DNA from: a virus | DNA: 64,000 nucleotides | Virus record (IMG/VR): IMGVR_UViG_3300039425_000002 | Reading direction: 5' to 3' (one strand) | Shown: positions 5,468 to 59,968 of the stretch, one piece after another | Layout of the letters: each line of letters opens with the position of its first letter | How positions within the stretch are numbered: the first letter of the stretch is position 1 | Translations under genes and position numbers: made by a program | The notes under the pieces: generated by a model | The model's input: only the letters and a program-made list of their open reading frames with translations | What the model was told of the DNA's origin: nothing | The model's database searches: none

Positions 5468-6800
5468 TTGACACTCTTCGACCTAAAGGTACGAGGATTC
5501 TTGCTTCACGGGGATTCCAATGAATTTACCCTCAGCAAGCATCTTGACCGTATGCCCTACGGCTGCAAGTCCCCGAATGAGGACCACTTGAGCGGCTGCC
5601 ACATCCCTGTCTGTGGTATAACCGCAATTTGAACAAACATGAGTACGTTCCGAGAGTTCTTTCTTGCCTGTCTCAACACCACAACTAGGGCAAATCTGGC
5701 TGGTTTTGCGACTGTCTACTTTTTGGAAATAAACATCACGCTTAAAACAGGTTTGCTCTAGGATGTTAAAGAATTGCCCAAATCCAGCATCTAAACAATG
5801 CTTACCCAGCATTCCACGAGATAAGCCGACTAAATTTAGATCCTCAACAAATATCATTCCGGTATTGTTGCAGATTTGGTGAGACAATTTCCTATGCCAG
5901 TCTTTACGACAGTTAGCAACATACTCATGCAGTTTTGCAACCTTCTTCTGTGCTTTGTACCAATTGTTCCAGCCAATACGTTTTTTGGAGACGCGCTGTT
6001 GCAGTAATTTCAGCTTGTTTTCGGCATCTACAAAAAATCTCGGACGCTTGATAGTTAGTCCATTAGAAGTTGCAATAAAAGTAGTTAAACCAACATCAAT
6101 CCCTATTGCCTCTCCCTGTGGCATTGGCTGGGGTACAGATACATCCCATTGAACAGTTAGCATCACATACCATCCAGAAATTCGTTTAACCACACGAGCT
6201 TGTTTGACTACGCCCCCATCTGGAATTGACCTTGATTGACGTACTTTTACCGTACCAATCACAGGCAATTTGACATATCCATTGCTTAGTGGATTTGTCC
6301 CTAACTGGGGAAAAGAGAAGGACCGCATCCGTCCAGGCTTTTTGAATCTGGGGAAGCCATGATTTTGTTCCCACATACTGACAAAAGCCTTTTCCAATCG
6401 CCTCAACGTCTGCTGTAAAGATTGAGCATTGACACGTTTTAAATACTCACTTTTTTTGCGTGCAGCAGTCAAAGACTTGCACTGACTAGCAAAAGTTGGA
6501 CGGGGAGTATCAGCAGGGATGATGTATTCAGAATGAAGTGAGCAAGCGTTAACTTGGCAACTACGAGACTTATACCAATCCTTGCGCTCTGCTAAAGCAT
6601 GGTTGTAAACCCGTCTATGGGTTTCTAGCCATTCCTCAAACATCGCAACTTGGGACTGTATTGGTTTTAATTTAAACTCGTAAGTCAGGTTAAACACTTA
6701 ATTACCTCCTGACTTATTTTAACACATCTAATAATCGTTATTACGGTTTTTAGAATAAAGTTGCTCTCTTATGGGCGAGGCTCTAACCCCATGTTCTTGT
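5468..6800 (-). mobile_element. IS200/IS605 family element (tnpB only, IS1341-like)
   Basis: tnpB ORF; minus-strand right end ...GAAGAGTGTCAA at 5468; left end approximate. Confidence 0.75.
5483..6697 (-). CDS. tnpB: TnpB RNA-guided endonuclease, catalytic triad intact
   Basis: GIDVG, VEDL, CPSCG/CSNCG zinc finger, DRD. Confidence 0.95.
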   Translation of the reverse strand: MFNLTYEFKLKPIQSQVAMFEEWLETHRRVYNHALAERKDWYKSRSCQVNACSLHSEYIIPADTPRPTFASQCKSLTAARKKSEYLKRVNAQSLQQTLRRLEKAFVSMWEQNHGFPRFKKPGRMRSFSFPQLGTNPLSNGYVKLPVIGTVKVRQSRSIPDGGVVKQARVVKRISGWYVMLTVQWDVSVPQPMPQGEAIGIDVGLTTFIATSNGLTIKRPRFFVDAENKLKLLQQRVSKKRIGWNNWYKAQKKVAKLHEYVANCRKDWHRKLSHQICNNTGMIFVEDLNLVGLSRGMLGKHCLDAGFGQFFNILEQTCFKRDVYFQKVDSRKTSQICPSCGVETGKKELSERTHVCSNCGYTTDRDVAAAQVVLIRGLAAVGHTVKMLAEGKFIGIPVKQESSYL

Positions 6801-47932: not shown

Positions 47933-48274
47933 ATGCTTAAATCCATTCCCTATTATTCTCCACCTCGACCAGGAGACATTGTACTAATCGCCGCCACTCC
48001 CTTTGTTGACTGGCTGCGAGAAATTGATTTCGCTAGGGACCCGGAATTTTTTAAGTTCTACCGCTACGACCTACTACCTGCCCGAAGCGATCACCTCGAC
48101 CGCTGGCTGTGGGCGAAAAGCAGAGTAGTCCAAATCGAGGGGTGCGTGGCACGACTGCGATCGCCAACCTTGGGAGAAGCCAACATCCCCATCCACTGCC
48201 TGAGAGTGCTAGAAAGTACTGCCCTCGCTACATCGGAAGGAAAAAAACATGCCAAAACGCAAACGAACAGATAG
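47933..48274 (+). CDS. Hypothetical protein
   Basis: Coupled ORF. Confidence 0.5.
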   Translation: MLKSIPYYSPPRPGDIVLIAATPFVDWLREIDFARDPEFFKFYRYDLLPARSDHLDRWLWAKSRVVQIEGCVARLRSPTLGEANIPIHCLRVLESTALATSEGKKHAKTQTNR

Positions 48275-50531
48275 CACGTTAGACAACGACCTTCGCGCCG
48301 AAGCAGCTAGCAAGTTCCAGGCAGGCGATCGCGTTCTTTATAAACTGACGCAGCAAGAAGGCTTCTTTTTGGAAAAAGCAGACTTCGCTGTTCTGGAATG
48401 CTGGGTGCAATTTGACGACGAGCTGACTCCTAAACCTATATCGCCTCTGAACCTGGAGCTTTTACCGGAAGTAACATGGGTGGAAACCAATGTCTTACAT
48501 CTGGCGGTAGGCGATCGCATCTCTGTCGCGGCTTGGGGGCATCAGCAGGGAGATGTGGTGAGTGTAGAGCCGTTGGTAGTGCGGTTTGAGGGTAGAGATT
48601 GCGATTCAAAGATTAGTCAGCGGGATATAGAGCAGGGACTGAAACGATTATGGATAGGCAACTACGAATGCTCGACTGCTATGCCGGAGTTGGTTCCTTC
48701 AGCTATGCAGCCTCGCTTGTTGGTGGAATTGCCACCACCCAACTCATCGAAATCGGCGAGTTCCAGCAATCAGTCTTGCGATCGCGCTTTCCAGGAGTTC
48801 CCCTCCACGATGACATCCGCACCTTCAACCCATCAGGGCAACAATGGGATTTATTCTGCGCTGGAGTCCCCTGTCCTCCTTTCTCCAGAGAGGGTCGTCG
48901 AGGAGCAACCAGTGACCAGCGCAACTTGTTCCCCGACACCATCCGACTCATCAAACAATGCAGCCCTAAATGGGTCATCATCGAAAATGTTGTCGGACTG
49001 CTCGACGCTCCCCTGTTCCCCGGAGAGCCAGCAGGAACTTTCTTTAGACACTTACTTCGGTCCTTATCCAGCTGCGGGTACGTGGGCGAATGGCTCGTTC
49101 TCTCCGCAGCCTGCTTTGGATTGCCACACAGTCGTCAAAGGGTCTTTGTCGTTGCCTACCCCGACAGCTTTAAGTTCAAAGAACAGCCGACCCCCTGGAC
49201 AGAACAAATTAGAGGCGAAGTTGAAGAGTTTAGGGCTAATAGCCCCTGGCAAAACAGTCAATCCCGAATTTCTGGAAATGATGCAGGGATTTCCCAGGGG
49301 CTGGACAGCAGTTGCTTTAACGGGGGAAATCCCTGCACAGCACTGCCTTACGGATGCCCAACTTCCACTCCTGGAAGAAGTAGTATCACTCGTAGAAGAA
49401 GAGAAGTCCTTGGAAATACTATCGCTCTCCCCGTTGCAATCGCTGTCCTTAGAAGAGTTCTCTACCTCAATCAACTTACAGAATGAGGAGCTTACCTCGC
49501 AGGACTTGGAGTATGGGAAGATGGTTGAAATAGTTCCCGCCGAAAGTTTGGCGACTGGTGGCGGGGAGGAGAATAAATTACTTAGCGACTCCACTATGGA
49601 TAGTACCATAGGCGGCACAGCTGTTGCTGCCGAAAAGTCTATTACTGCTCTTTCTTTAAATGAAATAGCCACTGACGGCGGTACTCAGTCACGCCTCAAG
49701 CTGAATCATGTAACTATTGAGGATTACGCCGAAGCGATGCAGGCGGGTGTAGAGTTTCCGCCCATAACCGTGTTCTATGACGGTAAGATCTACTGGCTAG
49801 CTGACGGTTTTCATCGAGTAGCAGCAGCGAGAAAAGCTTTTGTTGAAGATATTGCTTGTGAGGTACGGCAAGGCACTCGGCGCGATGCTGTGCTGTATTC
49901 GGTTGGTGCTAATGCTGCTCACGGTCTACCTCGCAGTCGGGAAGATAAGAAGTGCGCTGTCATGACCCTGCTGCATGATGAGGAGTGGAGTAAGTGGAGC
50001 GATCGCGAGATTGCTCGTCAATGCCACGTCGATCATAAGTATGTTGGTAAGTTGCGTAAAGAGGTCAATGGGGATATCCCCATTGAGAATCGCACCTTCG
50101 TTTCCAAACATGGCACGATTGCCACAAGGAGAGTAGAAAATAAAAAATCAACAGATGACTTTCCAGAAGGCACATCCGTCTTACTCAAACCTTCACACCA
50201 TCTGAACGGGCATAATGGTACGATTACTTCCCGTCCAAACGCGGAGACAGCGATCGTGAAGATAGAGGAGACGGGAGAGCGGGAAATTGTATCGCTACAT
50301 CACTTGCAACCAGTTATTGAAGAGGACGCCCAGACGGGGAGGCAGGGAGACGCGGTGACATTGCAGATGGTGAATGGGGCGGCAATGCAAGAGTCGTGCA
50401 ATCTAGCAGTATTAGCGACTGAAATTACAATTGGCGCAATCAGTAGTGCTAGCTTGCTATCAGATGCTCAAGTCAAATCAATTTTTGAGGCATATAAACA
50501 CAGGTTTGAGCAGCTGGGACTCCTAGGATAG
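48249..50531 (+). CDS. Multidomain protein: C5-MTase motif IX segment plus ParB/Srx-like domain and HTH
   Basis: NPEFLEMMQGFPRGWT; YWLADGFHRVAA; WSDREIARQCHVDHKYVGKLR. Confidence 0.7.
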   Translation: MPKRKRTDSTLDNDLRAEAASKFQAGDRVLYKLTQQEGFFLEKADFAVLECWVQFDDELTPKPISPLNLELLPEVTWVETNVLHLAVGDRISVAAWGHQQGDVVSVEPLVVRFEGRDCDSKISQRDIEQGLKRLWIGNYECSTAMPELVPSAMQPRLLVELPPPNSSKSASSSNQSCDRAFQEFPSTMTSAPSTHQGNNGIYSALESPVLLSPERVVEEQPVTSATCSPTPSDSSNNAALNGSSSKMLSDCSTLPCSPESQQELSLDTYFGPYPAAGTWANGSFSPQPALDCHTVVKGSLSLPTPTALSSKNSRPPGQNKLEAKLKSLGLIAPGKTVNPEFLEMMQGFPRGWTAVALTGEIPAQHCLTDAQLPLLEEVVSLVEEEKSLEILSLSPLQSLSLEEFSTSINLQNEELTSQDLEYGKMVEIVPAESLATGGGEENKLLSDSTMDSTIGGTAVAAEKSITALSLNEIATDGGTQSRLKLNHVTIEDYAEAMQAGVEFPPITVFYDGKIYWLADGFHRVAAARKAFVEDIACEVRQGTRRDAVLYSVGANAAHGLPRSREDKKCAVMTLLHDEEWSKWSDREIARQCHVDHKYVGKLRKEVNGDIPIENRTFVSKHGTIATRRVENKKSTDDFPEGTSVLLKPSHHLNGHNGTITSRPNAETAIVKIEETGEREIVSLHHLQPVIEEDAQTGRQGDAVTLQMVNGAAMQESCNLAVLATEITIGAISSASLLSDAQVKSIFEAYKHRFEQLGLLG
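48650..49486 (+). CDS. DNA (cytosine-5)-methyltransferase, alpha-type polypeptide
   Basis: Motif I YAGVG, IV GVPCPPFS, VI IENV, VIII RQRVFVVA, X LGNTI; no motif IX in this frame. Confidence 0.88.
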   Translation: MDRQLRMLDCYAGVGSFSYAASLVGGIATTQLIEIGEFQQSVLRSRFPGVPLHDDIRTFNPSGQQWDLFCAGVPCPPFSREGRRGATSDQRNLFPDTIRLIKQCSPKWVIIENVVGLLDAPLFPGEPAGTFFRHLLRSLSSCGYVGEWLVLSAACFGLPHSRQRVFVVAYPDSFKFKEQPTPWTEQIRGEVEEFRANSPWQNSQSRISGNDAGISQGLDSSCFNGGNPCTALPYGCPTSTPGRSSITRRRREVLGNTIALPVAIAVLRRVLYLNQLTE

Positions 50532-50557
50532 GAACAAATTGGGGTTTCATCAAAGTT

Positions 50558-51940
50558 GTGACAACTCCACTCACTAATTGCTTGCAATTAGCGGCGGCTT
50601 CTCAAACTCACGAATGAGACTTGCTGCCTCACAGGCTGAGTAACCTCTAAGCCTCCGCAGCCAGGAATCGGTAGTCCCACCGACCCACGTTTTAACAGAT
50701 TCAGCGCCGCATTCCAATCTCTGTCTATCACTAACTTACAGCTAGGACAATCATGAACCCGAACGCTCAAACCTTTTTCAACTCGCGTACCACAACTAAA
50801 ACACTCAATGCTACTTCTTCTAGGGTCAACTCCTTTTGTCCGCTTGCCGCATTTGACTGCCACTGCTTGCAAAATCTCAAGGAATCCACCCCAAGCAACA
50901 TCGAGTATTGATTTAGCTAATCGAGTTCTAGCCAAACCTTTGATGTTTAAGCTCTCAAAAACAATTAAGTCATAGGAATTAACCAACCAATGAGCAACTT
51001 GATAATGAAACTCTTTTCTCTGTCTTGCAACGTGCAAATGAAGTCTTGCAACCTTGTTGGCTTGCTTTTGGTAGTTCTTAGACCCTTTGATAGACCTTGC
51101 AAGTTTACGTTGTTGACGGGCTAAAGTTGCGTGTGTTGTCCGATAGTAATGTGGTACTTCAACACTTTGTCCATCAGCAGTAGTTAAAAACTTCTCTAAC
51201 CCAACATCTATGCCAGTAGCTGTTTTAATTTCATCAATAGGCAATGCAGTGGGAACAGTCTTATCTTCCAGCGAAAAGCTTACATACCATCCGTCAGCTT
51301 TGCGTAAAATCGTTGCTTGTTTAATCTCAAATCTCTCTGGAATTGGGCGGTGCAGAATAATTTCAACTTTGCCAATTTTAGATAACTTCAGAACATTTCC
51401 TGATAGGTCTGCGCCTGCTTTTGAGGAATTAACACGCGGAAACGTAAAAGAACAGATATCGCCGCGCTTCTTAAAACGTGGTCGTCCTCCCCGCTTACCG
51501 TTCTTGTCTGGAATCAACCAGCGCTTCCAGCATGAGTCCAACCGCATCAAGTTCTGTTGCTGGCAGTCAGCGTAGATGTCCTTGTACTCAGGAAACAGTT
51601 CTTTGGTTTGTTTTAGTTGTGATGCTTGAGTGTAGTAATCAACTTTTTCTGGGATCTCACCAATTGGTTCAGAAACGAGACTACAACGATCTATTTGACA
51701 CGCCCGTCGATTCAACCAATCAAGTCTTTGACCGAGTGCGTAGTTGTAGTGACGACGCAGCAATTCGCCCCAAGTCTCCATCGTGGCGACCTGTTCAGGT
51801 GTAGGGCAAAGACGGTACTGGTACGTAAGCAACATTTATTAATTGTAGCATATTTAGCTTATGAAATACCTAAAAAACTGTATGTTCGCATTCCCCTCAC
51901 CGCCAACACTTGTATGGCGGGAGTACCCTGCGGAGGTCTA
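50558..51940 (-). mobile_element. IS200/IS605 family element (tnpB only)
   Basis: tnpB ORF; minus-strand right end ...GGAGTTGTCAC; left-end hairpin near 51890-51935 (boundary approximate). Confidence 0.75.
50588..51835 (-). CDS. tnpB: TnpB RNA-guided endonuclease, catalytic triad intact
   Basis: GIDVG, FESL, CFSCG/CPSC, DRDWNAA. Confidence 0.95.
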   Translation of the reverse strand: MLLTYQYRLCPTPEQVATMETWGELLRRHYNYALGQRLDWLNRRACQIDRCSLVSEPIGEIPEKVDYYTQASQLKQTKELFPEYKDIYADCQQQNLMRLDSCWKRWLIPDKNGKRGGRPRFKKRGDICSFTFPRVNSSKAGADLSGNVLKLSKIGKVEIILHRPIPERFEIKQATILRKADGWYVSFSLEDKTVPTALPIDEIKTATGIDVGLEKFLTTADGQSVEVPHYYRTTHATLARQQRKLARSIKGSKNYQKQANKVARLHLHVARQRKEFHYQVAHWLVNSYDLIVFESLNIKGLARTRLAKSILDVAWGGFLEILQAVAVKCGKRTKGVDPRRSSIECFSCGTRVEKGLSVRVHDCPSCKLVIDRDWNAALNLLKRGSVGLPIPGCGGLEVTQPVRQQVSFVSLRSRR

Positions 51941-54571: not shown

Positions 54572-55093
54572 ATGTTATTTAAAACAGAACAAGTACAAGA
54601 TCGTAGATACGGAATTTGCTTCATCACATTGCCAAAAAATGAGAGCATTGTCAGTTTCAATATCTGGGATACTGATTCCGATCTGCCTTGCATTGGAATG
54701 GCAGGGCAATTAGTGACAGACCAGCATACTTACGATCTGACAGGATACAGAGATGTGGGCACCCACACAGGGCATCCACCTAAGTTAAGTGTAGTCAAAT
54801 CCCGTGTTGGGGATTTAGAGTACTTCAACCTTCTCACCCAACAGTGGCAAGACGCACTCCCCGATCCACTACCACCGCTAGAGACTGTTATCGGATTCCA
54901 GGATGGGCTACTAAAACCCGGTGTAACATGGAGCCATTTCGCTCCCTTTGATGGAGAGTACGTTGTCCGCGACGAGCCGGACAACGGGGAAACATTCTGG
55001 TACTGGGACTGCCCATCGCGGCATGGGGAATCCCGACCCAAGGAGGTGATTGCTGTCCCAAAGATTGTTGCCGCGCCTGCGGCAAGCCCCTAG
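54572..55093 (+). CDS. Hypothetical protein
   Basis: ORF upstream of the Cas12-like gene. Confidence 0.55.
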   Translation: MLFKTEQVQDRRYGICFITLPKNESIVSFNIWDTDSDLPCIGMAGQLVTDQHTYDLTGYRDVGTHTGHPPKLSVVKSRVGDLEYFNLLTQQWQDALPDPLPPLETVIGFQDGLLKPGVTWSHFAPFDGEYVVRDEPDNGETFWYWDCPSRHGESRPKEVIAVPKIVAAPAASP

Positions 55094-55264
55094 CGGCCCA
55101 AAACAAGAGCGGCTATTGTAAGGTACATCAAGATAAAGCGCCGCATCGTAAGAAGACTCGGCACAGAAATCGAACGAAAATGCGAGCATTGCCATTGACT
55201 ACCGTAGGGGAGGCTGTCAATCGCCTTGATCGCGATAAAATGGAATAGTTTGCGAAAGTTTGCG

Positions 55265-56848
55265 ATGAAAACCCTCGAATTCGCTCTTCACCCCAACTCC
55301 TCTCAACAAGCCAGCCTAAGCGGCTGGCTAGAGGCATTGCGATGGGTGTGGAACGAGGGCTTGAGGTTATGCCTAGAATTTGATCGCTACTCCGCTTGGG
55401 ATAAGCAGAGTAAAACCTGGACTGCTTGCTGCCCTAGATTTGGTGACGAGAAGATCCGCTGGCTTAAAGAGGGTGACAATTGGATTGCCGCTCCCTATTC
55501 TCCCATCGCCACCCGACGCAATCCTACCCGATTCTTCTGTCCGCTGCCTCCTGCCAAAGAATACCGTCAGCCGCAGCTACCGAATATCAGCGAATTCAGT
55601 CTGGCATCAGCTTTCGCTCACAAACGCCATCCTGACAAGCCGTGGCTCAAAGCAATCCCCGCCAATTTTATTCGGGGCGTTACTCAGTCGCTCAATACTG
55701 CGTGGCAGCGATATAAGAAAGGCGAGCAGGGGGAACCGCGCTTCAAAGGTAGGGGCAACTCCCTGGAAACGTTGACAAACAACGACGCGAAGATTATCAA
55801 GCGGGATGGCGATCGCCTGAAGATTCCCAATCTGGGTTGGATTCGACTCAAGGAGTTGACCCAACGATGGGGAGAAACAGCAATTAGCAGTCTAAAAATT
55901 TGTCAGCGTCCCTCTGGGTGGTACGTGCAGTTAAGTGGGGAATTACCAGAAAAAAGTTTTCCTAATCCATCGCGACCTGTAGCGGGAGTCGCCTTGATTT
56001 GTAAGGGGGCGCATCACGCAACTCACTATAAGCGACAAACTATTCAGTATAGACCGCACCAATTAGAGAGAAAGCTGCACAGACTGGAGCGGCAGCTAGC
56101 TCAACAACCTAACGAAGGATCAGAACAGCTCCTTGAAGGATTAAAGGCAAAGATAAGTCGCGCTTATACGCTGATTCAGGCGAGAGTGCATAAGTTAGAA
56201 GCAAGGCTGCTGAGGCTTCAGCGCCAACTAGCGCGGCAGCAATTTCTATCAAGCAACTGGCAGCGAACCAAAAAAGAAATAGGCAAGCTGCACGAACAGA
56301 TTCGCTTGCGTCGGCGTAACCTGAACCACAAACTATCGACTTTCCTGGTACGGCAGTACGACACCTTGGCAATTCAGAAAATTAAGCCGGGTCCTAAAAA
56401 GCGACCCCAACCCGTTCCTATCAACACCGACCCCCAGCAGTGGGCAGAGAATGGCGCACTTGAGCGCAGCCGCAAGAATCGATACATTGCTGACTTGGGG
56501 ATAGGACAGTTTGTAAGTTTCGTCAAAAGCAAAGCAGAAAAAGCTGGTCGAAAAGTTGTAGAAGTCGCTACAGAAACGGGACTTTTCGGTCAGGAGTTGG
56601 CGAGAAAGCTTCAAACAGAGTACATCTCTGGGCGAAGGTACGATGAGTGTGAATCGGAACTGATGCCTGTGAAGGGGGGCGATTCGCCCTCGGTGCAGCA
56701 GGAACCTGGACAACCGGGACATGCCAACCCAGTTGGCACAACTCAATCCTCAACTCAAGGTGCAACAACCTCAGCTCAAACGATAGATAGGAGCTTGCAA
56801 GATTCTTCAGAATCTGAAGCGGGACAGGGCTTTCCACGTCCGCCGTGA
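55265..56848 (+). CDS. Nuclease-dead TnpB-derived compact type V effector (C2c8/V-U2-like)
   Basis: TnpB-type MKTLEF...WVWN, PRFK, GWYVQL, SSNWQRTKKEIGKLHEQI..RR..NHKLST; RuvC-I GVA (D->A), RuvC-II AIQK (E->Q); zinc finger/RuvC-III absent; abuts CRISPR array. Confidence 0.85.
   Translation: MKTLEFALHPNSSQQASLSGWLEALRWVWNEGLRLCLEFDRYSAWDKQSKTWTACCPRFGDEKIRWLKEGDNWIAAPYSPIATRRNPTRFFCPLPPAKEYRQPQLPNISEFSLASAFAHKRHPDKPWLKAIPANFIRGVTQSLNTAWQRYKKGEQGEPRFKGRGNSLETLTNNDAKIIKRDGDRLKIPNLGWIRLKELTQRWGETAISSLKICQRPSGWYVQLSGELPEKSFPNPSRPVAGVALICKGAHHATHYKRQTIQYRPHQLERKLHRLERQLAQQPNEGSEQLLEGLKAKISRAYTLIQARVHKLEARLLRLQRQLARQQFLSSNWQRTKKEIGKLHEQIRLRRRNLNHKLSTFLVRQYDTLAIQKIKPGPKKRPQPVPINTDPQQWAENGALERSRKNRYIADLGIGQFVSFVKSKAEKAGRKVVEVATETGLFGQELARKLQTEYISGRRYDECESELMPVKGGDSPSVQQEPGQPGHANPVGTTQSSTQGATTSAQTIDRSLQDSSESEAGQGFPRPP
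56650..56844 (+). ncRNA. Putative omegaRNA/tracrRNA-like scaffold and leader overlapping the effector 3' end
   Basis: TnpB right-end-like GCCTGTGAAG...GCAGCAGGAA; hairpins gggcg/cgccc and tgccaac/gttggca; GTGCAACAACCTCA complementary to the repeat 3' end. Confidence 0.55.
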
Positions 56849-57823
56849 AACTAGTCTTAGTTGATTGAGGGGAGTTGCACGAGCACGACGAATTTACCCC
56901 CGAGCAGATACTTCAGGTGAAACTAGTCTTAGTTGTTTGAGGTGAGTTGCACTGGTCTGACAATGATCAGAGATCGATCTGCTAGGTTGTGAAACTGGTC
57001 TTAGTTGTTTGAGGTGAGTTGCACAACAATGATGAACTGTACAGCTCTGGTCAAACAACGGTGAAACTAGTCTTAGTTGTTTGAGGGTTGCACTCCTTGG
57101 ATGCTCGCTGAACAACTAGCAACTCCCGTCAAGTGAAAAGCCTTGGTTAGTTGAGGAGGCGTTGCACCCTAGAATATCTAAGCTTTGATTGCCTTGTTCA
57201 CCCATGTGTGAAAAGCCCTTGATTAATTAAGGAAAGTTGCACTTCTGCATACCAGAATGAGGTTTTTGCTTTCGTTGAGTGAAACTAGTCTTAGTTGTTT
57301 GGGGAAAGTTGCACACAACTCGTAGGAGGCAGTATGACCCCTGAAGTAGAGTGAAACCAGTCTTAGTTGATTGAGGGGAGTTGCACTCAACGCCAGTGGT
57401 ATTACAAGAACTGCTTGAGCAGGTGAAAACACCCTTGATTAGTTGAGGAAAGTTGCACAGATCAATAGCTGGCAAAGTGATCGCTCGGCTAGAGGTGAAA
57501 ACACCCTTGATTCAGTTGAGGAAAGTTGCACGTAGTGGTTTGTAAGCCTTCTTCACGTTCTTACGCTTCGTGAAAACACCCTTGATTGGTTGAGGAAAGT
57601 TGCACAAAACTCGGAAGCCCAAGAGTTCCTGGCTGGGTGTTGTGAAAACACTCTTGTTGGTTGAGGTAAAGTTGCACATGGGCGTGGACCTGTTGAGTGA
57701 AACTAGTCTTAGTTGCCGTGAAGCGTCCTTTAGTGACTTGAGGTGAGTTGCACATCGCTTATCCATTGTATTCGCGGGAGCATGAGGCTGAAAACACTCT
57801 TGATTAGTTGAGGAAAGTTGCAC
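56845..57823 (+). CRISPR. CRISPR array: 14 repeats (33-37 nt), 13 spacers (34-40 nt)
   Basis: Repeats start at 56845, 56917, 56989, 57061, 57133, 57208, 57279, 57351, 57423, 57495, 57570, 57642, 57718, 57788; consensus GTGAA...TTGAGG...GTTGCAC; + orientation inferred from gene direction and the degenerate last repeat. Confidence 0.95.
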
Positions 57824-57866
57824 TCTTCACGGTGAACGGTTGGCTGGTAATGATCGCATGTAACCT

Positions 57867-58361
57867 ATGGGAACTAACTTCTACTTCAGAGGTCATCGCA
57901 ATGATGACGACCCTAATTTTCACATTGGCAAAAGATCTGCGGCTGGATTGTATTGCTGGGACTGTAGAGTTACGCTGTGTCGGGAAGGGGAAAGTCAAGT
58001 TCACTACAGACCGACTTGGTACAGCACTTGTCCGCAATGTGGACAGAAGGCAGCAAAAGAGTCTTTAGAAGTATCTGCGGTAGGTAGAGAGTTAGGATTT
58101 AACAAATCTCAACCTCAAGCTAAAAAGGGTGTTAGAGGTTGTAGTTCATTTAGCTGGGCAATGGAGCCGGAAAGACTATTTCAAGCCAGCGTTTACCAAC
58201 CAAAGCAAGTGTCACTACCATTTCTCTCTTGTGAAGCCGAATCACCCCAGTACACCGTTGAGGATGAGTACGGGGAACTTTATACTTTGATTGAGTTTAG
58301 GCAGATTCTGAATGAATGCCCTATTCACTTCACAAAGATGATAGGCGAATGGTTCTGCTAA
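57867..58361 (+). CDS. Conserved phage hypothetical protein
   Basis: MGTNFY...HIGKRSAAG...CWDC...CPQC...DEYG. Confidence 0.7.
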   Translation: MGTNFYFRGHRNDDDPNFHIGKRSAAGLYCWDCRVTLCREGESQVHYRPTWYSTCPQCGQKAAKESLEVSAVGRELGFNKSQPQAKKGVRGCSSFSWAMEPERLFQASVYQPKQVSLPFLSCEAESPQYTVEDEYGELYTLIEFRQILNECPIHFTKMIGEWFC

Positions 58362-58942
58362 GAAGCGATCGCCCCTAAAATAGAGAGGTCAACCACATCA
58401 AGCGGAGACACTCCCCCTGCGGGACGCTCAACCCCGACTCTTGGCGGAGATCGGGGCTTTCTGGGTACAAATTGGGTATAATACCCACCTCTCTAAGTAA
58501 AAAATGTTACTCCATAAGGCTTTGAGGGGAGTGAGCACCACAGTGGTTGTGTGGGGGTCAAGAGTGGTGCCAAAGCGCGTAGTTCATAAATGGGGCAGGC
58601 TCAAAAGATTGGTGGTTTTACGGTTATGTTACTCCTGTAAATTGTTAATAATAGGGGCATGGTACAAGTCATTTGGTAATTTGATTTGTATCTCCTGTGG
58701 TTTAAACCGTCCGACGTTTTCGTTGGGGCGGTTTTATTATTGCAGAAATTCTCGGGAAATTGCTAAAGTATTAATCGATACTTCTAAGAAGAGATGGCGT
58801 GATCGCCTACGCCAAGGGCTAATCGAAAGCATCAACCATCTGCTCAAAACATCCGCAAGTTGGTTACTATAACCAAAATCGGTGCTATTGACTTCGCTAG
58901 TTCCGCTTACTCAGTCGCTGTTTTATTGAGCTTAATACTGCA

Positions 58943-59332
58943 ATGAATAACTTTATTTTGGATGAGTATACCTCGGTTAATAAATTTAAGGAGTGTGCTG
59001 ATTGTCTAAACAACTACAAAGACAAAATTATTAAAAATTATGTTGAACAAATCTTTCCCTGTTCCCAATTGGAAAGTTCTGGAGGAATCCGCAAGCTAAA
59101 TGGCAGCCTCGCTGGAAAATCCTGGCTAGAAGTTGCGAAACTCTACTGGGATAAAAAGCGTGTTGCAGAACATCGCGAAGACGAAGGGAATAAGTTTTGG
59201 CTAGTTCTGCCTTCAGGCAATCTACAGCAAATTAGTCAGATCATTTTAGAGTGTGATGAAGATTGTTTGCAATTGATAGTCGATAGACCAAACGGATCTC
59301 AACTTTATCTAGCTGTGAATTTTGTTAGCTAG
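58943..59332 (+). CDS. Hypothetical protein
   Basis: ATG ORF, AT-rich. Confidence 0.5.
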   Translation: MNNFILDEYTSVNKFKECADCLNNYKDKIIKNYVEQIFPCSQLESSGGIRKLNGSLAGKSWLEVAKLYWDKKRVAEHREDEGNKFWLVLPSGNLQQISQIILECDEDCLQLIVDRPNGSQLYLAVNFVS

Positions 59333-59386: not shown

Positions 59387-59968
59387 TTACCAACCCTGTG
59401 TAACATCAAACGCCAACACTTCTTCAACCGTCAGCATTGCGTCAACTTGCGATCGCAGCTTAGCCCGACGCCCAGCAACCAATGCTGTTTGTGTTCTCAA
59501 ATAGTTTGATTTTTGCAGAATCCTTTGCGCCAAAGCTTGAGTCGCGGCTAGGACTTGTTCTGGGGTAGTGGCACCCGTTGCAGCGATCGCTTCTACCTTT
59601 AGATATGGAGCTTGGTCGATATCGTTGCTTGCCACCAGTGCTTTAGCTTCCTTCTCCTTCTCATCCCAGGAGGTAGCTTCCGCATAGGAATATCCGCTAA
59701 TTAAAGCGTCTTGTCTTCGTGCGGTTTCGTCGATAATTTGTTGATAAATTATCGCTTTGGCTGCCTCTAGAGTTGGGGGTTCTGGTTCCGCGTCGCTTAG
59801 ATCAAGTTTGCCGTGAATCGCTTCCCAAGCTCTCAATTCTTGGGTTAGTGGATGGGATTCGTCGAAGGTTTGAGTTTCTGTATTGAAGGGTAGTAGCACC
59901 CCATCAATTCGATGGACTAAAGCTACTCTGCCTGAATTGTCCCGATTAATTCTGTAATTACCTTGCAT
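59387..59968 (-). CDS. Tail-fibre-assembly-like protein
   Basis: EATSWDEKEKEAKA...PYLKVEA...LAQRILQK pattern; end of structural operon. Confidence 0.55.
   Translation of the reverse strand: MQGNYRINRDNSGRVALVHRIDGVLLPFNTETQTFDESHPLTQELRAWEAIHGKLDLSDAEPEPPTLEAAKAIIYQQIIDETARRQDALISGYSYAEATSWDEKEKEAKALVASNDIDQAPYLKVEAIAATGATTPEQVLAATQALAQRILQKSNYLRTQTALVAGRRAKLRSQVDAMLTVEEVLAFDVTQGW

Follow-up and report, generated by a model that had tools for sequence, protein, structure and literature searches.

A predicted tracrRNA within the coding tail of a nuclease-dead, V-U2-like phage CRISPR effector gene, with two anti-repeats

The window analyzed here is a 64,000-nt stretch of viral DNA (IMG/VR record IMGVR_UViG_3300039425_000002), identified as that of a tailed phage by its capsid, tape measure, helicase, and ParA/ParB genes in PHROGs and Pfam scans. 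It carries a TnpB-like effector gene of C2c8, or type V-U2, character, abutted by a CRISPR array. Sequence comparisons indicate that the last ~200 bases of the gene very probably double as a scaffold of the trans-activating CRISPR RNA (tracrRNA) type, which pairs with the array repeats. The placement of such an RNA within a gene is already known from Cas12n and other small Cas12 systems; what is new is a nuclease-dead phage V-U2 lineage with a doubled anti-repeat. A first-pass annotation of the same DNA had proposed that the coding tail contains an omegaRNA-like scaffold and an anti-repeat; this proposal is upheld, as the elements covary with the repeats across homologs.

For the comparisons, 63 homolog loci were collected, some of them duplicates and some plain TnpB. 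Placement of a scaffold head together with one or more repeats succeeded in 29 of these and in the window; two or more repeats are present in 21 of the 30 loci. Permutation tests were confined to the array loci, with the nine single-repeat loci excluded and L023 dropped as a duplicate of L022.

The scaffold begins at bp 56639, upstream of the start at bp 56650 in the first-pass annotation. The motifs named there are all present: GCCTGTGAAG (56665–56674, starting one base later than had been given, 56664) and GCAGCAGGAA (56695–56704) flank the stem-2 hairpin, and the hairpin directly 5′ of the first anti-repeat and the downstream GTGCAACAACCTCA follow. The flanking pair had been likened to a TnpB right end, and the same head motifs are indeed carried by the 3′ ends of ordinary TnpB genes in L045 and L049. 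RNAalifold predicts 22 pairs from 24 aligned scaffold heads, with compensatory changes in 22 of 22. For the 20 pairs named from the window fold plus the alignment, 96.9% of the cells are paired and the covariation is 0.82, versus 0.20 in shuffles (0 of 500 reaching the real value) and at most 0.23 with slid partners. The six inner pairs of the hairpin next to the anti-repeat are paired in 99.3% of cells, all with two-sided changes. A covariance model across homologous loci, which had been proposed earlier as a check, recovers loci outside its training set (L033, L017, L043, L010, and L038). The head lies in frame within the open reading frame (ORF) in 27 of 30 loci; in the other three, it follows the stop codon or lies in another frame, and its retention there indicates that it is not a protein constraint. 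In 21 of the 30 loci, the effector stop codon falls inside the first repeat.

Two plain TnpB genes are also matched weakly at their 3′ ends by the covariance model (E about 0.1), which gives no match at the window’s own two plain TnpB genes. Weak minus-strand matches occur upstream of the effector in L037 (3339–3462), L051 (882–989), L052 (591–698), L003 (2638–2733), and L004 (3703–3805). These loci mostly lack a tail scaffold, and the matches possibly mark a relocated tracrRNA.

The loop of stem 1, GTGT (56647–56650), is predicted to pair with the terminal GCAC of the repeat, forming a pseudoknot that the first-pass annotation missed. In the homologs, the loop and the repeat end change together: the combinations found are CUUC:GAAG, CUUU:AAAG, CUUG:CAAG or UAAG, GUUC:GAAC, GUUG:CAAC, and, in the window, GUGU:GCAC. 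With one locus taken for each of seven repeat-end types, 28 of 28 pairs form (P = 4/5040 permutations, either of two registers being allowed), although here, as in the other permutation tests, the relatedness of the homologs means that P overstates independence. Passages on Cas12p describe pairing of tracrRNA bases 7–10 with positions −1 to −4 of the CRISPR RNA (crRNA) (bioRxiv 2025.01.20.633832), which is the geometry predicted here.

The position-conserved anti-repeat starts at the aligned column directly 3′ of the last scaffold hairpin. Its pairing starts at repeat position −4, leaving the terminal bases free for the pseudoknot. At least five of six pairs form in 18 of 21 array loci, and the three that fail, L010, L036, and L038, are probably misaligned. 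Across 14 distinct repeat segments, 72 of 84 pairs form versus a permutation mean of 59.1 (0 of 200,000 permutations); relatedness inflates this P value, yet the pair types swap. Anchored tests were preferred to duplex folding of each whole repeat with the whole tail, which gave much noise and reached p ≤ 0.05 in 6 of 21 loci. On the repeat side, all 14 repeats have GTTGCAC and 12 have TGAGG, the two blocks being separated by 0–4 variable bases, which agrees with the first-pass description of two conserved blocks. The repeat 5′ end, GTGAA, is kept in 13 of 14 repeats and lies outside the anti-repeat pairing; thus, repeat conservation has other causes as well. The features are collected in Table 1.

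Table 1. Predicted features of the effector–array locus (window positions).
Feature	Position	Strand	Remarks
C2c8/V-U2-like effector gene, 527 amino acids	55265..56848	+	Alternative TTG start at 55226; stop codon inside repeat 1
Scaffold stem 1 (56641–56644 with 56653–56656)	56639..56656	+	Stem covariation
Scaffold stem 2 (56666–56670 with 56698–56702) around hairpin 56675–56691	56665..56704	+	Folds; stem 2 covariation
Scaffold hairpin (56705–56709 with 56714–56718)	56705..56718	+	Covariation
Scaffold hairpin (56722–56728 with 56732–56738), directly 5′ of anti-repeat	56722..56738	+	Covariation
Position-conserved anti-repeat	56739..56758	+	Pairs with repeat from −4 upstream; homolog covariation, co-fold
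Second anti-repeat, tandem-like copy holding GTGCAACAACCTCA (56760–56773)	56760..56776	+	Pairs through repeat 3′ end; excludes pseudoknot
CRISPR array, 14 heterogeneous repeats (33–37 nt), 13 spacers	56845..57823	+	Two interleaved repeat families
Spacer 9	57459..57494	+	35/36 match on another contig

In profile searches, NF038192 (C2c8) is by far the best family for the effector, with a score of 277 bits versus a curated cut-off of 350, so that membership in type V-U2 is inconclusive by that measure; in the tree described below, the protein nests among above-cut-off proteins. The PADLOC models Cas12u2 and Cas12u4 match at E values of 1.8e-92 and 3e-28. Ten relatives tested on the C2c8 profile score 250–573 bits. 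The top score belongs to a dead protein of the Chroococcidiopsis-plasmid type, which means that catalogued C2c8 already includes dead proteins.

Instead of D, E, and D, the RuvC columns of the window protein hold A, Q, and a gap, i.e., RuvC-I Asp is changed to Ala, RuvC-II Glu to Gln, and RuvC-III is absent. The zinc finger is also absent, with no CxxC in the C-terminal 260 residues. Structural comparison of an AlphaFold model finds the best fold matches in TnpB and Cas12p. A C-terminal tail of about 60 residues is predicted to be disordered, with a predicted local distance difference test score below 50 at residues 465–525. The low complexity ascribed to this tail in the first-pass annotation is modest: 3.66 bits versus 3.63–4.02 in other 62-residue blocks, no lower than in the coiled-coil blocks. 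Against L001, a syntenic locus on a related phage contig whose effector is 64% identical and whose array is different, the nonsynonymous and synonymous rates (dN and dS) are 0.09 and 1.3 over the N-terminal 200 codons; in the RuvC region, dN is 0.27 and dS is saturated. That dN is far below dS in the protein core indicates purifying selection, i.e., the effector is conserved and not decaying.

In a FastTree phylogeny of 65 proteins, the window protein is one of 17 dead proteins that group together with support 97, and three D-E-K proteins are the sister group of this clade. Another nine dead proteins form a clade of their own (support 100), which holds the RefSeq-labelled c2c8 of a Chroococcidiopsis plasmid; the loci of this type, L061 and L063, are nearly identical, and their clade is separate from that of the window. 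From the tree, nuclease activity seems to have been lost on at least two separate occasions within V-U2, once via D-E-K intermediates. By its position in the tree, the window locus is a derived, nuclease-dead branch within a set of V-U2 proteins whose RNA is already split. The first-pass annotation had read the locus as a TnpB-to-Cas12 intermediate; that label fits V-U2 in general and not this locus.

Two observations concern the tails of related effectors. Of 79 D-E-D proteins, 28 have a QLxL[FW]-like motif within their final 60 residues (e.g., the V-U2 homolog tails of L002, L011–L013, L035, L039, P0011, and P0018) and one has it in the body; within that C-terminal stretch, none of 33 dead and none of 8 partial proteins has it. 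The window protein does not have it. We take it to resemble the sliding-clamp-binding motif, and it may be a reason why the tail stays open as far as the first repeat. Separately, a dead V-U2 subclade (P0006–P0008, P0010, P0015, P0017, P0022, P0027, L009, and L016) mostly lacks a scaffold-coding tail. The two of its loci for which DNA is available have no array or scaffold downstream. The members of the subclade are possibly orphan regulators.

In each of the two DNA runs containing the locus, spacer 9 has its near-perfect match on a contig other than that of the locus (14.5 kb and 32.5 kb). The flanks of the match are unlike the repeats, and the 5′ flank ends in ATG. Searches of phages, plasmids, and viral contigs gave no target for the other 12 spacers, and 401 genomes of the phylum of G001 gave no full spacer match, the three short hits being at chance level. 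Nor does the window contain a self-target; outside the array, the best agreement is 23 matches per 34–40-nt spacer. One partial match, between the 3′ half of spacer 7 (57334–57350), distal to the protospacer-adjacent motif (PAM), and bp 57880–57896 (16/17, antisense, E 0.29), was not counted as a target. It falls at the start of the gene just 3′ of the array and derives perhaps from a related-phage homolog, perhaps from chance. Apart from some outliers, the repeats themselves belong to two interleaved families, and half a repeat (the 5′ half, 57697–57717) lies within spacer 12; the mixed families and the half repeat suggest recombination between arrays or deletions. As to origin, the repeats may descend from a split transposon end or from a captured array of host type. 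A 21-nt segment of a downstream gene (58113–58133) is 81% complementary to the second repeat family, probably by chance.

Dead RuvC, purifying selection, and one protospacer make it likely, at the level of sequence, that the effector acts by binding alone. We propose the following sequence of events. A single transcript would run through the gene, the scaffold, and the array. The scaffold would fold from bp 56639 into omegaRNA-like stems, the upstream anti-repeat would pair with a repeat, and the stem-1 loop would pair with the last four bases of that repeat. Trimming would probably be carried out by host RNases, and new spacers would probably be added in trans by host adaptation proteins. The dead effector would then clamp PAM-flanked, spacer-matched DNA, raising a roadblock to transcription or replication, as Cas12m does. 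We judge it reasonably probable that the complex is directed in this way at the DNA of rival mobile elements, which it would block without cutting.

The same RNA and protein could instead serve to regulate genes of the host or the phage in a programmable way, as a TldR or a CRISPR regulator does, with no part in defense against mobile elements. Dead TnpB and Cas12 derivatives are often regulatory, as set out in parts of two papers (PMC10691335; PMC13622181), and the ATG just 5′ of the spacer 9 match could be a start codon on a contig that may be phage, plasmid, or host. On the other hand, 13 spacers of 34–40 nt, one with a full-length 35/36 match, have the look of acquired immunity, and the searches gave no self-target in the window and no full spacer match in the 401 genomes. 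No sigma factor or similar partner was recognized adjoining the effector gene. We therefore regard regulation as unlikely.

The proposed roadblock complex would use the upstream anti-repeat. The second copy lies 21 bases downstream of the first, and its GTG extension covers the very end of the repeat. This copy includes the segment (56760–56773) that the first-pass annotation named as the anti-repeat; the pairing is real, but the homolog-conserved position is the upstream one, and the downstream segment covers the bases needed for the pseudoknot. A 22-nt stretch containing it pairs with the 14 repeats at a mean of −20.2 kcal/mol, better than all 11,398 background stretches from both phage strands, and against 200 tail shuffles its pairing has p = 0.02. 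Of 18 loci (mean z −1.14), four have a significant second site, namely the window, L001, L062, and L039, and these include all three GCAC-ended loci. Co-folding with a repeat, suggested earlier as a check, yields either duplex, depending on where the RNA ends. Cut at bp 56760, the scaffold forms stem 1 and the upstream duplex, and the terminal CAC is free; extended to bp 56790, the downstream duplex wins and the upstream copy pairs back onto stem 1. Two mutually exclusive RNA folds are thus predicted by the folding models. The second anti-repeat may serve to keep the precursor in another duplex, or it may be a redundant duplicate. The idea that each anti-repeat serves one repeat family was not supported by pairing energies.

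A different assignment makes the 56760–56773 segment the working anti-repeat of the mature complex, with the pseudoknot and the upstream copy being vestigial in the dead lineage. In its favor, this segment gives the stronger duplex with all 14 repeats when the whole 3′ end may pair and wins the minimum-energy fold, a comparable site is significant in each GCAC-ended locus, and the pseudoknot register is shifted in the clade of the window. Yet the change of the loop to GTG is seen in precisely the clade with CAC-ended repeats, the copy in the aligned column is the upstream one, which forms 6/6 pairs in all three GCAC loci, and the few loci with a significant second site have it at variable distances. 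Moreover, Cas12 tracrRNAs characteristically form such a pseudoknot, according to passages of bioRxiv 2025.01.20.633832. This assignment is accordingly improbable.

Several findings weigh against the scaffold and roadblock reading that we prefer. Eight array-bearing homolog loci (L014, L015, L037, L051–L054, and L056) have no tail scaffold, so that the layout is not universal in V-U2; three of the eight have weak covariance-model matches upstream on the opposite strand. The three GCAC-ended loci need a one-base register shift for the pseudoknot, and L062 forms only 3/4 of its pairs. With the second anti-repeat present, the lowest-energy fold disrupts stem 1, in a program that ignores pseudoknots and protein. 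As to function, a target is found for only 1 of 13 spacers, its contig could be phage, plasmid, or host, and both DNA runs with the match may be the window’s own source. Finally, the heterogeneity of the repeats is unusual and could be a sign of decay. That the locus is a decaying relic, its nuclease dead and its scaffold and array drifting without function, is nevertheless highly improbable: the loss of all catalytic residues, the heterogeneous and half repeats, and the 12 unmatched spacers would fit, whereas the low dN relative to dS, the supported clade of 17 dead proteins, the intact and compensated stems, the near-perfect present-day match of spacer 9, and the syntenic locus with a different array in L001 all speak against such a relic.

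Other features of the phage and of the searches are as follows. The scans covered 40 ORFs with PHROGs and 24 with Pfam, in overlapping sets, and recognized no Cas1 and no Tn7-type or transposon-targeting gene; ORFs below 150 amino acids in 1–48000 lie outside the scan, and a Cas2 is possible there. Rfam gave no match within 55000–59000, and promoter and terminator counts were no higher than in shuffles. When viral contigs were scanned for the repeat pattern, 69 single matches came up, none with a C2c8 gene. Every named homolog source is cyanobacterial, which concerns the homologs and not the window’s own host; the evidence that the phage itself is of cyanobacterial type is inconclusive. An apparent match of “spacer 11” of L001 to window bp 59548–59581 proved to be an orthologous gene following a chance GTTGCAC, and L001 thus has 10 repeats.

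The same phage has two intact D-E-D TnpB genes (50588–51835 and 5483–6697, minus strand). The array repeats have a 3′ end similar to the predicted right end of the first (about 50557–50572), perhaps by coincidence, since the repeats of related V-U2 loci have other ends. Upstream of parB, an intergenic, palindrome-like element of 40 nt (766–805) is 87.5% like L001 3925–3964, which lies upstream of the effector gene. An ORF for a 278-residue DNA methyltransferase (48650–49486) is nested in a 760-residue ParB-like ORF (48249–50531) on the same strand in another frame, and L001 is arranged likewise.

The covariation sets base-level limits of the tracrRNA, the pseudoknot, and the anti-repeat, making V-U2 directly testable. 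If the dead proteins bind DNA, they would offer a compact natural effector for CRISPR interference (CRISPRi), with about 465 folded residues, and a further case of phages turning non-cutting CRISPR on competitors. A bolder idea, which we put forward as doubtful, is that of an independently evolved phage CRISPRi weapon: a dead, zinc-finger-less, tracrRNA-dependent V-U2 would silence rivals by binding, the doubled anti-repeat would be a two-state RNA switch between a precursor duplex and a pseudoknotted mature form, and one in-frame scaffold would serve several repeat families.

Among known systems, V-U2 is a catalogued but little-studied subtype, and C2c8 is grouped under Cas12f3 in the relevant passages of PMC7229846. 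In the literature searched, no biochemical study of V-U2 was found and no title or abstract opens on a dead V-U2 or a V-U2 tracrRNA; Jin 2025, Tordoff 2025, and supplements may already list dead V-U2. The one described phage locus, that of cyanophage vB_AphaS-CL131, is reported without a tracrRNA in the passages of PMC6293099 that concern it. Type V-U2 loci, this one included, share with the window locus a TnpB-like effector directly 5′ of the array and no recognized adaptation genes; a cyanobacterial phage or plasmid setting may be shared as well. In contrast, the window effector is dead, has no zinc finger, scores 277 versus 350 bits, and has its predicted tracrRNA inside the gene. Bearing on the proposed acquisition of spacers in trans, a V-U2 array and a Cas12k array are reported to have near-identical spacers in common (bioRxiv 2021.02.06.429022). 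Cas12k of the V-K CRISPR-associated transposons is accompanied by Tn7-like tnsB, tnsC, and tniQ; the window effector is likewise dead, but none of these genes was recognized among the scanned window ORFs.

Cas12m (V-M) and the TldRs derive from TnpB, do not cut, and act through RNA-guided binding of DNA. TldRs use a single omegaRNA and are not known to have an array. A single omegaRNA is also the layout of IS200/IS605 TnpB, where the scaffold ends in a transposon right-end hairpin and one guide comes next; in the window, the scaffold leads instead into anti-repeats and the array of 14 repeats. The relevant part of PMC13622181 describes TldRs as repressors derived from TnpB. For Cas12m, sections of PMC11013384 describe binding-only interference with no need of a tracrRNA and with the zinc finger kept; the window locus, in contrast to this crRNA-only system, has a covarying scaffold and anti-repeat. 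Some 50 independent TnpB-to-Cas12 origins, with repeated inactivation, are described in parts of PMC10691335 and PMC12669027.

The window effector lacks the intact RuvC D-E-D and the zinc finger of the active Cas12f3, TranC, Cas12n, and Cas12p proteins. Splitting of the omegaRNA, suggested for this locus by the first-pass annotation, is described for TranC in passages of a review (PMC13639567) and a preprint (10.1101/2025.09.28.678669); the characterized TranCs cut DNA. A TranC would be marked by membership of a defined clade and by use of both crRNA/tracrRNA and reRNA. The best sequence match among solved structures is Cas12p, the “Cas12 hacker” (PDB 9jfs and 9jg3). From the passages on it, Cas12p is likewise phage-encoded, pairs its stem-1 loop with crRNA −1 to −4, and has a disordered C-terminal domain and TnpB-omegaRNA-like stems; those passages do not state that its tracrRNA overlaps the gene. 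It differs in being active, larger, and thioredoxin-dependent, with 14% identity in the structural alignment. As to layout, the tracrRNA of Cas12n (V-N, formerly V-U4) overlaps the ORF under a disordered tail, according to sections of PMC12216341 and bioRxiv 10.64898/2026.03.27.714800, and the same arrangement is found in the window by prediction and covariation. Both systems, as far as those sections describe Cas12n and by prediction in the window, combine a tail-overlapping tracrRNA with a pseudoknot to the repeat 3′ end; Cas12n differs in being an active nuclease of another lineage.

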